Notes: generated by a model not told the origin, from the sequence alone. DNA of 64,000 nucleotides from Myxococcota bacterium (GCA_965223705.1 OZ245015.1:3936001-4000000); one strand, 5' to 3'; positions 51,439 through 55,676 are shown, counted from the first letter of the stretch. A program made the numbers and translations.

Positions 51439-53352
51439 ATGAGCGATCCGATCCGCGAGAGTGATGAGGTCATTGCGCGATACCTCCGGGAAGCGAACGC
51501 GCCGACCTTGTTGATGAGCCTGGTGCACCTGACGGGGAGCACCGACGTCCTGCGGCCCGCGTTCCAACCCACGACCGCAACCTTTGGCGACGATCAAGGC
51601 GGCCTCGATGAGGCGACCCGCGCGGCGATCGCACGCGTCGCTGGCGACGCGCTGCGCGCCTACCGAGACCGGGGCTGCACACTTCCGGCGGCCCCAAGTG
51701 ATGAGACGCTCCTCGAGATGATGAAATTCATTACCGGCGGCGCCGACGTAGACGAGTACGTACCGCTCCTCCTCGAAGAAATGGGCCTCGGAGATCAGCG
51801 CGCGCGCGGCCTGCGCTTCACCGGCGACACGCCGCCCGAAGCGCGGGCCTCGTTTCGCGTGGGAATCATCGGCGCCGGCATGTCGGGCCTTCTCGCGGCG
51901 ATCCGCCTGCAAGAAGCCGGGATCCCCTTCGTCATCTTCGAGAAGAACGCCGATGTCGGCGGCACCTGGCTCGAGAACCAGTACCCGGGCTGCCGCGTGG
52001 ACGTGCCGAACCACTACTACTCCTATTCCTTTGAGTCGGAGCACGAATGGCCGCAGTACTTCTCCACCCAAGACGAGCTGCTCGCGTATTTCCAGGGCTG
52101 CGCCGAGAAGTACGGCCTGCGGCAACACATCCGCTTCGAAACCGAGGTCCGGTCCGCGCGCTGGGATCGCGAAGCAGCGCGGTGGAACGTGACGTTCGAG
52201 GGCCCGGAAGAGAAGACCGAAACGCTTGCGGTGAACGCGCTCGTCTCAGCGGTCGGTCAGCTCAACCGCCCGAAGTTCCCGGACATACCGGGGCGCGATC
52301 GCTTCCGCGGCGAAGCCTTCCACTCGGCCGAGTGGCGCCACGACGTCGACTTGCGAGGCAAGCGCGTCGCCGTGATCGGGACCGGCGCGAGTGCGTTTCA
52401 GTTCGTCCCGGAGATCGTCGACGATGCCTCGCACATCACAATCTTTCAGCGAAGCGCTCCCTGGATGTTTCCCACGGACAACTACCACGACCACGTCGGC
52501 GAGGGCGAGCGCTGGCTGATGCGCAAGGTGCCGTTCTACGCAGCGTGGTACCGCTTCTGGTTGTTCTGGACCTTGTCCGACGGGCTGCTGCCGGTGCTCA
52601 CGGTCGACCCCGACTGGCCGCACCTCGACCGATCCGCCTGCGCAGAGAATGATGAGCTGCGCAACCTGTTGATCGATTACCTGAAGACGCAGATCGAAGA
52701 CGATCCCGAGCTTCTCGAGAAATCGATCCCGAGCTATCCGATCGGCGGAAAGCGCATGTTGCGCGACAACGGCAGTTGGCTGAGAGCACTGCAGCGGGAC
52801 AACGTCGACCTCGTCGCGAACCCCGTCGTCGAGATCACGGAAGACGGCCCGGCCACGAAAGACGGCGCCTCCCCCGCCGACGTCATCATCTACGGAACCG
52901 GGTTCAGAGCGAATGATTTCATGTGGCCCATGGAAGTCGTCGGCGAATCGGGCGTACCGCTCAACGAGCAATGGAAAGACGATCCCCGGGCCTACATCGG
53001 CATCACCGTGCCCGACTTCCCGAACTTGTTCTGCCTGTACGGACCGAACACGAACCTCGTCCACGGCGGCAGCATCATCTTCCACTCAGAATGCCAAGTG
53101 CGCTACGTGATGGGTTGTATCGGACTACTGCTCGAAGGCCAGCACGATTCTCTCACGCCGAAGCGCGACGTCTACGAAGCGTTCAACCGCGACGTCGATG
53201 AAGCGAACGCTCAGCGCACCTGGGGCATGCCCGGAATTCAGAGCTGGTACCGCAACAGCAAGGGCCGCGTGACCCAGAACTGGCCGTGGCGCCTCGTCGA
53301 CTTCTGGTCGAGAACACGAGCGCCGAACCCCGATGATTTTGATTTCGCGTAG
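51439..53352 (+). CDS. Type I Baeyer-Villiger monooxygenase (HAPMO-like, N-terminally extended)
   Basis: GAGMSG, GGTWLENQYPGCRVD, FRGEAFHSAEW (FxGxxxHxxxW), GTGASA, GTGF. Confidence 0.9.
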   Translation: MSDPIRESDEVIARYLREANAPTLLMSLVHLTGSTDVLRPAFQPTTATFGDDQGGLDEATRAAIARVAGDALRAYRDRGCTLPAAPSDETLLEMMKFITGGADVDEYVPLLLEEMGLGDQRARGLRFTGDTPPEARASFRVGIIGAGMSGLLAAIRLQEAGIPFVIFEKNADVGGTWLENQYPGCRVDVPNHYYSYSFESEHEWPQYFSTQDELLAYFQGCAEKYGLRQHIRFETEVRSARWDREAARWNVTFEGPEEKTETLAVNALVSAVGQLNRPKFPDIPGRDRFRGEAFHSAEWRHDVDLRGKRVAVIGTGASAFQFVPEIVDDASHITIFQRSAPWMFPTDNYHDHVGEGERWLMRKVPFYAAWYRFWLFWTLSDGLLPVLTVDPDWPHLDRSACAENDELRNLLIDYLKTQIEDDPELLEKSIPSYPIGGKRMLRDNGSWLRALQRDNVDLVANPVVEITEDGPATKDGASPADVIIYGTGFRANDFMWPMEVVGESGVPLNEQWKDDPRAYIGITVPDFPNLFCLYGPNTNLVHGGSIIFHSECQVRYVMGCIGLLLEGQHDSLTPKRDVYEAFNRDVDEANAQRTWGMPGIQSWYRNSKGRVTQNWPWRLVDFWSRTRAPNPDDFDFA

Positions 53353-53418
53353 CGCAGGAGCCGGTGATGCATCCCGCCAATGCGACCGCTCCGCTCGCGT
53401 CTTAAGAGCCCCTCGAGG

Positions 53419-53455
53419 GCTGAGGGTGACCGGAGCGTCTCCGGCCACCCTCAAC
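53419..53455 (-). terminator. 17-bp GC-rich stem-loop just downstream of the SEC-C gene
   Basis: Minus RNA GUUGAGGGUGGCCGGAG-ACG-CUCCGGUCACCCUCAGC pairs fully using two G-U wobbles, which are mismatches on the plus strand; no clear U-tract. Confidence 0.6.
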
Positions 53456-53457
53456 AG

Positions 53458-53706
53458 CTAGTCCTCTCGGATGTAGTAGTTCCTCGGTGTGCCGTCAAAG
53501 CGACCTGTTTTCAGGCAACAGCGCTTGAAAGCGTCGTCCCGAGCCGCAGGGGCACAAGTCTTTTCGCCCGAGCTTTTCGTAAAGCTCCTTGTTCCCGTGG
53601 ACTACTCGGTGGCCTCGTTTGACACGAGTCTCGCTGGGGTAGCCTTTTTCGGCGCTTACTCGTGGTCTCGAAAGCGCGGGAGGTCTTCGTCGGTTGTGCG
53701 TGCCAT
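53458..53706 (-). CDS. Small SEC-C zinc-motif protein interrupted by up to three +1 frameshifts (recoded gene or pseudogene)
   Basis: SD AAGGGAGGT then ATG 53706; joined product [81 protein letters not shown] (81 aa). Confidence 0.7.
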
Positions 53707-53918
53707 GGGGCACCTCCCTTCTCGGGTTGCACCGGATTGGGTGCGGGCCCTCGTGAGTACCCCAGAACGGACGGGGTCGCTACGTAACCGGCGGTAAACG
53801 CCTTCGCCCGGTCGTAGTTCGCGTTAATCTCGTAAGTCTCACGCCATTAATCGTTCAGCGGACGCGTGCCCGTCGGTAGCGCCGAGAACAATCGACAACG
53901 CCACTCAAAGGAGTCACC

Positions 53919-55676
53919 GTGAAGGCTTCAGCTAATTTCGTACGTATCAGCGTTCTGCTGCTGGGCTTGGCAGCCGTGTCTCCGACTGACGCGGCAACGG
54001 ATGTGACGCCCGAGTACGGCGACCTCTCGCTTCCGTCGCACTGGAAGGCGGACGAGCCGGTGGGGGACACCGGAGCCTCGGTCACGAAAGACCAGCTCGA
54101 TGGCGCCGCCTCGGATCCGTCGGCGTGGCTTCACTACTACGGGGACTATCGAGGCTATCGGCACAGCCCGGTGAAGGGTCTCACGCCGGAGACTGCCCGT
54201 CGCCTTCGCCCGCGCTGGGTTCTACCGACCGGGGCCACGGGTCATCTGGCGGTTTCACCCATCTACTTCGATGGAATTCTCTACGCGACGACACCGAGAA
54301 ACCGCCTCTACGCAATCGACGCACGCAGCGGCGAAGTTCTCTGGAGGTACGATCATCCGCAGCCGCCCGACCTTCGGATCTGCTGCGGTGTTCCGAACCG
54401 CGGCGTCGCGATCGCGGGACAGCTCCTCTTCATGGCGACGCTCGATGCCAAGCTTCTGGCCTTCAATCGACGGACCGGGGAGATCGCGTGGCGGGTGACG
54501 ATCGAGGACTACAAGCTCGGGCTTTCGGCCACGGCGGCACCGCTGGTCGTCGACGACCTGGTGTATATCGGCATCGCGGGCGGGGAGTACGGGGTTCGCG
54601 GCTTCTTCGACGCCTACCGCGCGGACTCCGGTGAGCGCGTCTGGCGCCACTACACCGTTCCCGCCGCGGGAGAGCCGGGGGCGGAGACCTGGGGAAATGA
54701 ATCTTATGAATCCGGCGGCGCCGCTGCTTGGACCACCGGGACTTACGACCCGAGTACCGACACGCTGTTCTGGACGACGGGAAACCCTTCGCCGGACTGG
54801 AACGGCGACGTGAGGCCCGGTGACAACCTCTATGCGGATTCGGTTCTAGCCGTCGATCCGCGCACGGGGCAACGCAAATGGCACTTCCAGTTCACGCCGC
54901 ACAACGTGTGGGACTACGACGGGAACACGCAGCTGTTCTTGATCGATGTCGAATTCGAAGGGCGCGAGGTGAAAGCTCTCGCTCAGCCCAATCGCAACGG
55001 ATTCTTCTACCTCCTCGATCGAACGAACGGAGCGTTTCTGCGCGCGACCCCTTACGTCGAGCAGCTCAACTGGGCGAAGAGGCTCGACGAAAACGGCCGA
55101 CCTGAGGTCGATCCGGCGAAAGTCCCCGTCGAGAACCCCACCGAGCGGATCTGCCCCGGCGCGCAAGGTGGCCTCAACGGAGGCTGGACCGCCGCGTACA
55201 ACCCGGCGACAGGCCTCGCTTACGTCCCGACCATCGAAGCCTGCCAAACCATGAACAAGGGCATCGCCGTGAGGATCGAAGGCAACCCCTATATGGGCGG
55301 CGGCTTCAATCCGATCGACGGCAATGCGGGACAATCCTACGGGCGCCTGGTCGCCTACGACCCAGCGTCGGGAACCGTGCGCTGGGCCTACCGCGACCCG
55401 AACCCTCTCATGGGCGGCACGCTCAGCACAGCGGGCGGTCTCGTGGTCACCGGCAATCAGGAAGGGTTCGCCCTCGGCATCGACGCGAAGACCGGCAAAG
55501 AGGTCTGGCGCCATCGCCTCGGTTCTCCGGTACGCAGCCAGCCTGTCGCTTTTGAACTCGATGGCGTGCCGCACCTCGCGATCGGAGCGGGCCAGGAGCC
55601 CCTCTACACCGCGGTTGCCGGAGGGCCTACCCGAGTACCCGAAGGCGGTGCCCTCTACCTGTTTCGGGTGGAGTAG
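53919..55676 (+). CDS. PQQ-dependent alcohol dehydrogenase (methanol/ethanol family)
   Basis: Signal peptide, ICCGVPNRG vicinal Cys, GGEYGVRG, WTTGNPSP, WHFQFTPHNVWDYDG, NRNGFFY, W-repeat propeller. Confidence 0.9.
   Translation: MKASANFVRISVLLLGLAAVSPTDAATDVTPEYGDLSLPSHWKADEPVGDTGASVTKDQLDGAASDPSAWLHYYGDYRGYRHSPVKGLTPETARRLRPRWVLPTGATGHLAVSPIYFDGILYATTPRNRLYAIDARSGEVLWRYDHPQPPDLRICCGVPNRGVAIAGQLLFMATLDAKLLAFNRRTGEIAWRVTIEDYKLGLSATAAPLVVDDLVYIGIAGGEYGVRGFFDAYRADSGERVWRHYTVPAAGEPGAETWGNESYESGGAAAWTTGTYDPSTDTLFWTTGNPSPDWNGDVRPGDNLYADSVLAVDPRTGQRKWHFQFTPHNVWDYDGNTQLFLIDVEFEGREVKALAQPNRNGFFYLLDRTNGAFLRATPYVEQLNWAKRLDENGRPEVDPAKVPVENPTERICPGAQGGLNGGWTAAYNPATGLAYVPTIEACQTMNKGIAVRIEGNPYMGGGFNPIDGNAGQSYGRLVAYDPASGTVRWAYRDPNPLMGGTLSTAGGLVVTGNQEGFALGIDAKTGKEVWRHRLGSPVRSQPVAFELDGVPHLAIGAGQEPLYTAVAGGPTRVPEGGALYLFRVE

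Follow-up and report, generated by a model that had tools for sequence, protein, structure and literature searches.

Serial +1 frameshifting is probably required for full-length synthesis in a family of very small SEC-C proteins

How can a gene yield its complete protein when the parts of that protein lie in three different reading frames? This question is raised by a small SEC-C gene in a stretch of 64,000 nucleotides from a Myxococcota bacterium (the window; the genome has 4.56 Mb in 2 contigs, with 64.7% GC). The gene is on the reverse strand, alone between a flavin monooxygenase gene (51439-53352, forward strand) and a PQQ dehydrogenase gene (53919-55676, forward strand). Judged from sequence comparisons, it probably belongs, as an intact copy, to an unnamed family of very small SEC-C proteins that is widespread and whose full-length synthesis requires serial programmed +1 frameshifting that is prfB-like and of the UUU_Y type. 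We infer that the ribosomes themselves slip, that they do so by P-site slippage, and that the yield is regulated. The features of the locus are as follows, in the order in which they are read.

53720-53713, reverse strand: Shine-Dalgarno (SD) sequence AAGGGAGG, with a 6-nt spacer to the ATG
53706-53704, reverse strand: ATG start codon, which opens a 16-codon ORF
53706-53671, reverse strand: leader segment, frame 1, 12 codons, the last being TTT at 53673-53671
53676-53668, reverse strand: site 1, CGC TTT CGA, where C 53670 would be skipped and GAG read next
53669-53646, reverse strand: segment 2, frame 2, ETTSKRRK
53658-53656, reverse strand: TAA closing the unshifted 16-codon leader ORF
53651-53643, reverse strand: site 2, CGA AAA AGG, where A 53645 of an A5 run would be skipped and GGC read next
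53713-53495, reverse strand: 72-aa ORF in the third frame
53644-53528, reverse strand: segment 3, frame 3, with the first two metal ligands and all invariant family columns
53533-53525, reverse strand: site 3, CGC TTT CAA, where C 53527 would be skipped and AAG read next
53497-53495, reverse strand: TGA closing the unshifted reading of segment 3, whose product lacks the last two cysteines
53526-53458, reverse strand: segment 4, again in the ATG frame, 22 aa and then TAG at 53460-53458; its tail is kept in homologues (GRFDGSxRNYY..)
53452-53422, reverse strand: 17-bp GC-rich hairpin directly 3′ of the stop, without a T run

The full joined protein has 81 aa and would be reached via three +1 steps. 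The initial annotation had built it from a strong SD before ATG 53706, a frame that ends after 16 codons, and the three +1 sites CGC-TTT-CGA, CGA-AAA-AGG, and CGC-TTT-CAA, the last of which was said to return to the ATG frame. All of these elements are present at the coordinates listed above, and segment 4 is indeed in the ATG frame up to the TAG at 53460-53458. The window copy retains the SD, the ATG, and all invariant residues, and its segments 2, 3, and 4 have no usable start of their own: the sole start codon in the third frame is a GTG within the SD, and the codon preceding SKRR is ACG, which is no start codon. We rejected the alternative that one -1 shift leads from the ATG frame directly into the GYPSET frame, since the conserved ETTSKRRK would then be skipped.

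The sequence is authentic. The possibility of an assembly error, raised in the initial annotation, was tested on Logan contigs, which reproduce the window sequence exactly. Over 53300-53900, one contig from run X1 (possibly the source sample itself) shows 0 differences. Run X4 comes from a different sample of the study, and two of its contigs, over 53300-53599 and 53601-53900, likewise show 0 differences, and 0 gaps; the A5 run of site 2 is identical in both samples. These exactly matching contigs from two samples rule out an assembly error. The prfB gene of the same genome (G000:C1:1137649-1138659, L134) has the classical +1 site CGG GGG CGG CTT TGA C, so genuine programmed shifts survive in the assembly. 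Extra X1 and X4 contigs match around 53652-53721 and 53510-53572 at 85-90%, and one of them reads AGG AAG GGC TAC, in frame at site 2; they match short parts only, at less than 90%, and come from homologous genes that other organisms in these samples carry.

We used the Pfam SEC-C model (PF02810, gathering cut-off 20.4 bits) to compare the readings at site 3. Both are above the cut-off: the unshifted ORF matches with 23.8 bits over model positions 1-14 of 19, and the product after a +1 step at site 3 with 31.5 bits over positions 1-18 of 19. The CxCx8C(C/H) set of four ligands, with its conserved serine and aromatic residue, is complete only after the +1 step at 53527, whereas the unshifted frame reads RRFQALL, without the last two cysteines. 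The proposal that the last zinc ligands come only via the third shift is thus borne out by the rise from 23.8 to 31.5 bits. The SEC-C knuckle is the only recognisable domain of the protein. No NCBIfam model reaches its cut-off, the only hits being sub-cut-off matches to the SEC-C stretches of YecA/YchJ-type models. The best matches among solved structures are YchJ-C (9l6b_C) and SecA (1sx0_A); an AlphaFold2 prediction for an in-frame homologue, made with 68 sequences, gave a poor model (mean pLDDT 53). The C-terminal tail of SecA, YecA, and YchJ share with the window family the CxCx8CC ligands, the conserved serine, and the aromatic residue. In contrast to them, the family consists of stand-alone proteins of 55-85 aa with no UPF0149 or UPF0225 domain, and it has its own basic N-terminal part, SKRRKG(Y/F)PSET..VVHG, and its own tail, GRFDGxxRxxYF. 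SecA-like metal-binding domains are described as binding zinc or iron, SecB, and ribosomes (10.1101/613315).

A protein search with the site-3-stepped product yielded 985 proteins of 46-147 aa, and the GTDB species set contains 588 genomic relatives. Among the carriers are isolates, including Novipirellula sp. SH528, Massilia pinisoli JCM 31316, Ruegeria sp. HKCCA6707, and Acidobacteriaceae bacterium KBS 96. The canonical member starts with MSKRRKG(Y/F) and comes with or without the tail DGxxRxxYF; homologues carry AFExTSKRRKGYPSET within a single frame. Some database proteins have N-termini or “FQELL” stretches resembling the out-of-frame readings of the window copy, and because of these we read the loci at the DNA level. 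A search of 40 relatives with this query found only the SEC-C tails of long, SecA-size proteins and no orthologue; the second-best match in the genome of the window (L004) was rejected as noise.

We read 107 loci, namely the window, the best 80 of the 588 GTDB genome relatives, and 26 metagenome loci; the set includes near-identical contigs (e.g., L115-L118), and 97 rows are distinct. In three-frame views and a frameshift-aware alignment to natural in-frame members, 104 of the 107 loci, from many phyla, could be aligned. Their frame changes are all +1, except for two +2 events (in L075 and L088). Damage to the copies or long-read errors may account for both, and in L088 the CPCGS is displaced as well. 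The breaks fall at five places, as follows.

Site A (site 1 of the window), end of the leader: 71 of 100 loci need +1; TTT CGA G 35, TTT TGA G 14, TTT CGA A 8, TTT TGA A 5
Site B (site 2), between SKRRK and PSET: 13 loci, five forms
Site C, between VHG and DxEL: 2 loci (L102, L106), GGG-CGA
Site D (site 3), between RRF and KxCC: 32 of 104 loci; TTT-CAA 28, TTT-TAA 4
Site E, between GRF and the DG tail: 56 of 100 loci; TTT-TGA 38, TTT-CGA 9, CTT-CGG 3, CTT-TGA 2, CTT-TGG 1, other 3

The family-wide motif is TTT-Y followed by GAR, AAR, or GAY. The same breaks are found in short-read assemblies, in isolates, and in JGI metagenomes, and some of the homologous loci come from long-read MAGs. No locus of the 100 combines an in-frame SD-ATG with an unbroken body: one +1 shift is required in 6, two in 58, and three in 7 (the window, L073, L104, L108, L109, L123, and L128). 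An ATG stands directly before SKRR in 51 of 101 loci, and the other 50, the window included, have no start codon there.

We pooled pairwise Nei-Gojobori counts per segment, and in the model frame pN is 0.14-0.29 and pS 0.72-0.92 in every segment (S, core, KxCC, and tail) and every break class, while pN/pS is close to 1 or higher when the same bases are read in either of the two remaining frames. The test is partly circular, since the aligner picked the frames by protein similarity and thereby favoured low pN, but the aligner is limited to a single skip at each break, and saturation of synonymous change is nothing it could produce. Unbroken, D-type, E-type, and B-type loci are under constraint alike, so that shifted segments behave like unbroken ones; for example, the S segment of site-B-broken loci has pN 0.18 and pS 0.81 (n=11). 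The expectation that homologues keep their breaks at the same sites under purifying selection thus holds for the TTT-C sites and for every segment; at site 2, the AAA-AGG form is private to the window. Relaxed constraint, private lesions, or a lost start or key residue, as would mark a pseudogene, were not found at this locus, the exact form of site 2 alone being private. The claim that serial +1 slips are the sole route to the full 81-aa protein therefore finds strong backing, at the level of comparative data, in breaks common to many phyla and in this purifying selection.

At site A, TTT-YGA-R is found in 62 of the 71 loci with a leader that needs +1. In these 71 loci, the leader has an SD and an ATG, runs for 10-19 codons (M-basic-acidic-..F), is open to the site, and lies one frame behind the body; a GGAGG-type SD and an ATG 40-56 nt upstream of SKRR are present in most homologous loci. 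The leader nearest to that of the window is in L123 (MARKNRDDLPRF) and is almost identical to it. Leaders are weakly constrained, with pN/pS of 0.75 in their own frame vs. 1.44 and 1.13 in the others. Site 1 had initially been made to hinge on the choice of start. The site itself is well supported by the 71 of 100 loci and their 62 TTT-YGA-R forms, and the doubt about the start is settled by the SD spacing and the conserved leader. The remaining classes of the 100 loci are 15 with a T7 run (+2/-1), 1 with an in-frame start, 1 with a +1 leader that has an earlier stop, and 12 without an SD-ATG within 90 nt. In the T7-run variant (L034, L036, L040, L042, L043, L048, L050, L052, L068, L072, L082, L087, and others), the frame of the leader (..PFFSRR*) is one ahead of that of the body, and in 15 loci the leader stop, TGA, and the start of MSKRR overlap as ATGA; these loci need +2 or -1, or termination and reinitiation.

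Site 3 had been ranked as the best supported of the three, and this holds: all 32 loci broken at site D have TTT-CAA (28) or TTT-TAA (4), while members that are in frame there have TTY-AAR. Site E is in frame in 43 loci, the window among them. An SD-like word of at least 4 bases precedes it in 24 of 53 shifted loci vs. 6 of 43 in-frame loci, a weak enrichment that is confounded by kinship.

Site B is more diverse. The AAA-AGG form occurs in the window only, that is, in 1 of the 13 loci broken at this site; the 12 others are broken within the same four codons, at GGG-TTA, GGG-ATA, or GGG-CTA (6 loci), at a TTT-CAA type of site (4), or at CCT-GAG (2). Judged from its codons, AAA-AGG fits the textbook recipe of perfect AAA re-pairing next to a rare AGG. 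On a codon tree of 97 rows, in which 15 of 94 inner branches are starred and which is too weakly resolved to count origins, the sister of the window is L123 (SH-aLRT 96). That site B arose several times is suggested by its different nucleotide forms, the tree being too weak for this purpose. Breaks A and D are common to L123 and the window. L123 is also broken at E but stays in frame at B (AGG AAG GGC TAC), and the window is the reverse, broken at B and in frame at E. L108 and L109 (74-78% identity) share all three breaks of the window, A, B, and D, with B one codon later (AAG GGG A TAC). These differences in layout among close kin indicate that break positions turn over while the protein is kept.

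We also asked what could make these sites shift. In the +1 frame, TTT would re-pair on TTC at sites 1 and 3, and AAA on AAA at site 2. A heuristic set of 1,248 high-GC3 ORFs from the genome served as a control for codons and hexamers. Per 1000 codons, AGG is used 2.0 times (the 8th rarest), CGA 10.2 times, and CAA 7.4 times, the latter two being ordinary. The initial annotation had seen one design in the three sites: an arginine codon, a P-site codon that can re-pair, and a disfavoured A-site codon. A P-site codon able to re-pair is present at all three sites and AGG is rare, whereas CGA and CAA are not; the arginine codon drops out of the design, since it is dictated by the protein (RRF, KRRK) and relatives do not generally have it at site 1. 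The in-frame hexamers were observed in the 1,248 ORFs 86 times vs. 42 expected for TTT-CGA, 65 vs. 31 for TTT-CAA, and 8 vs. 8 for AAA-AGG. Since they are read in frame in ordinary ORFs at or above expectation, the hexamers alone are no efficient shifters. Genes for tRNA-Arg(UCG) and tRNA-Gln(UUG) are present in the genome. An expanded-anticodon tRNA-Phe was rejected: there is one ordinary tRNA-Phe(GAA) only, and the hexamers are read in frame elsewhere. ARAGORN lists a tRNA-Arg(GCG) and no tRNA-Arg(ACG). TAG is the commonest stop of the 1,248 ORFs (626 TAG, 479 TGA, and 143 TAA).

No SD-like stimulator is visible before any of the three sites of the window, and RNAalifold on 23 D-type loci gave 0 consensus pairs and thus no shared structure. 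The single-sequence fold of the window copy has z = -2.9, most of which comes from the terminal hairpin and from an SD:CCUCCC pairing that is absent across the family. In the minimum-energy fold (reverse strand), the SD GGGAGG (53713-53718) pairs with CCUCCC (53677-53682, in the region of the leader codons CTC CCG that directly precede site 1); CCTCCC is also found in L108, L115, L120, and L123 and is not family-wide. An Rfam search of 53300-54000 gave only sub-threshold matches, to the post-stop hairpin, and a promoter and terminator scan of the locus found nothing. The post-stop hairpin (53422-53452) faces the 3′ end of the convergent monooxygenase gene. The ordinary use of CGA and CAA, the hexamers read in frame elsewhere, the cognate tRNA genes, and the lack of both an SD-like element and a shared structure speak against an efficient shift in this genome. 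The individual shifts may therefore be inefficient, with a full product that is kept scarce on purpose; otherwise there must be a stimulator that we do not see.

Taken together, these observations suggest the following course of events. Ribosomes would initiate at ATG 53706 behind the strong SD and translate the 12-codon leader. When UUU, bound by tRNA-Phe, occupies the P site and CGA the A site, some of them may slip +1 (UUU to UUC) into ETTSKRRK, and the ones that do not slip would stop after 16 codons. At AAA-AGG, tRNA-Lys could re-pair on the overlapping AAA while the rare AGG waits, and the ribosome would enter the frame of segment 3. A third +1 slip at UUU-CAA would add KRCC, which holds the two remaining metal ligands, and then the conserved tail. 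Since the individual slips are probably of low efficiency, only a minor fraction of initiations would end in the full 81-aa protein, and slow reading of the A-site codons would determine how large that fraction is. Three serial shifts of low efficiency would give a very low yield, which would count against serial shifting.

Other explanations have to be weighed against this one. The main rival is a relic copy: the family may use +1 frameshifting and the window copy may have been disabled recently, the extra A of the A5 run being an ordinary mutation in a gene that normally needs only sites 1 and 3. The homopolymer at site 2, the uniqueness of AAA-AGG among the 13 loci broken in that interval, and the in-frame reading of its sister L123 there would all fit such a relic. 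So would the lack of an orthologue, for this query, in the 40 relatives searched, which suggests that the gene is dispensable in the lineage. We nevertheless consider this unlikely: the 12 other loci broken in the same four codons, in four other forms, have both flanking segments conserved; the SD, the ATG, the invariant residues, and sites 1 and 3 are intact in the window copy; AAA-A followed by the 8th-rarest codon AGG permits perfect re-pairing with a slow A site; and the same A5 is found in two samples. Sequencing or assembly errors, or a correction before translation by transcriptional slippage or RNA editing, would agree with the position of all three sites in or beside short homopolymers (T3, A5, T3) and with the origin of part of the homologous loci from long-read MAGs. 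Runs of 3-5 bases are, however, far shorter than known transcriptional slippage tracts; errors would not hit Phe codons only and in the +1 direction only; and the recurrence of the breaks in short-read assemblies, isolates, and JGI metagenomes, together with the exact match of the contigs from two samples, makes this explanation extremely improbable.

It is also conceivable that there is no frameshifting at all, and that separate or truncated products are made: the 16-aa leader would be a regulatory uORF, the bodies would be translated by reinitiation or from internal starts, and truncated forms (e.g., the 55-aa form ending in GRF*) would be functional. The ATG right before SKRR in 51 of 101 loci gives this explanation some room, since reinitiation could replace the shift at site A there (though not in the window copy), as does the overlap of the leader stop with that ATG as ATGA in 15 loci; gene callers annotate 55-aa proteins, and hairpins resembling intrinsic terminators follow the gene. 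We regard it as very unlikely, since the window copy has no start for segments 2, 3, and 4 other than the GTG inside the SD, since the tail (56 loci) and the KxCC segment (32 loci) are conserved as +1-frame protein and have no start of their own, and since unshifted D-type products would lack two of the four metal ligands. Serial +1 frameshifting in an intact gene is the reading that we prefer.

How would such a gene compare with known cases? To our knowledge, programmed +1 frameshifting in bacteria outside mobile elements essentially consists of prfB and a few single sites. Like prfB (CUU_UGA_C), the window copy has a short leader ORF behind a good SD, a YUU re-pairing codon, and a body in the +1 frame, and its relatives use TTT TGA (38 at site E, 19 at site A) or CTT TGA (2 at site E). 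Unlike the window, prfB has an in-frame UGA in the A site, where the window has the sense codons CGA, AGG, and CAA; an SD-like stimulator, which in prfB lies about 3 nt 5′ of the shift codon, is absent at the sites of the window; and the window gene would need three successive shifts. Its product is not a release factor, so that there is no place for the RF2 feedback loop. UUU_Ynn has been described as especially prone to +1 frameshifting in bacteria, and a slow A site as generally favouring +1 shifts (Atkins 2016, PMC5009743). Sites 1 and 3 of the window, UUU followed by C, resemble the UUU_Ynn sites known from E. coli studies and the YopN-TyeA fusion, and the influenza PA-X site UCC_UUU_CGU (PMC5009743), while site 2 is AAA_A and not of the UUU_Y type. 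As that review presents them, these are single sites that yield a minor extra product, whereas the sole complete product of the window gene needs every shift. Mitochondrial cox1 of Perkinsus, with +1 shifts at AGG and CCC (PMC2952869, PMC9550989), likewise has several +1 shifts at defined codons that are conserved among relatives; there the rule is described as genome-wide in an organelle, whereas the window has one small chromosomal gene, and the same hexamers are read normally elsewhere. Our literature search, in which Antonov 2013 and Atkins 2016 were covered in part, turned up no publication about this family, nor one about any chromosomal gene of a bacterium that has multiple programmed +1 shifts.

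If our reading is right, this chromosomal gene family, found in many phyla and with a sole complete product that takes one to three or more +1 slips in a space of about 250 nt, would be the densest bacterial recoding cassette known. Because its slip sites come and go at different Phe, Gly, and Lys codons, it would offer a natural reporter series for P-site slippage, A-site speed, and frame maintenance. The annotation of the family in databases is affected as well, its gene calls being 55-aa proteins, proteins with out-of-frame N-termini, or two fragments. New here are the layout of the window copy, the in-genome hexamer control, and the RNA-repair neighbourhood described below.

In Planctomycetota, the small SEC-C gene is often directly upstream of RNA-repair genes; it is so placed, on the same strand, in 14 of the 80 genome loci. 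The downstream genes are of four kinds.

Hen1: L053, L056, L062, L085
AAA_33 kinase and Thg1-like: L046, L048, L054, L063, L082
RNA ligase (PF09414) and HD: L034, L074, L089, L096
RtcB: L035

In a reciprocal test on 101 genomes evenly drawn from each of two Planctomycete orders, 5 of 19 Hen1 loci have the SEC-C core upstream in the same orientation, as do 9 of 23 Thg1 loci; the core was never found downstream of, or on the other strand from, a Hen1 or Thg1 locus in this sample. The window copy is not beside RNA-repair genes.

This tie to four RNA-repair modules gives a concrete functional hypothesis for a family that had none. The frameshift-gated SEC-C protein might be a sensor of translation damage, in which a slow A site (through a shortfall of RF2 at UGA, or through cleaved, depleted, or under-modified tRNAs at CGA, AGG, CAA, or NUA) would raise slippage at UUU_Y, and only then would a complete Zn/Fe knuckle that binds ribosomes or RNA be made. 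In Planctomycetota, the gene would then be the leader of repair operons (Hen1-Pnkp, kinase and Thg1-like, RNA ligase and HD, RtcB), and ribosomes shifted at the last site would go about 30 nt further towards a terminator hairpin, possibly switching on the repair genes by attenuation. We offer this as a speculative idea, which as a whole is quite unlikely. A GC hairpin with a T run, similar to a terminator, usually separates the small gene from the repair genes; it lies 15-40 nt after the +1-frame stop in L034, L046, L048, L053, L062, L063, L082, L085, and L089; hairpin and T run could be an attenuator reached only by shifted ribosomes. Some genomes carry two to three paralogues of the small gene (G043 and G044, the genomes of L074 and L083).
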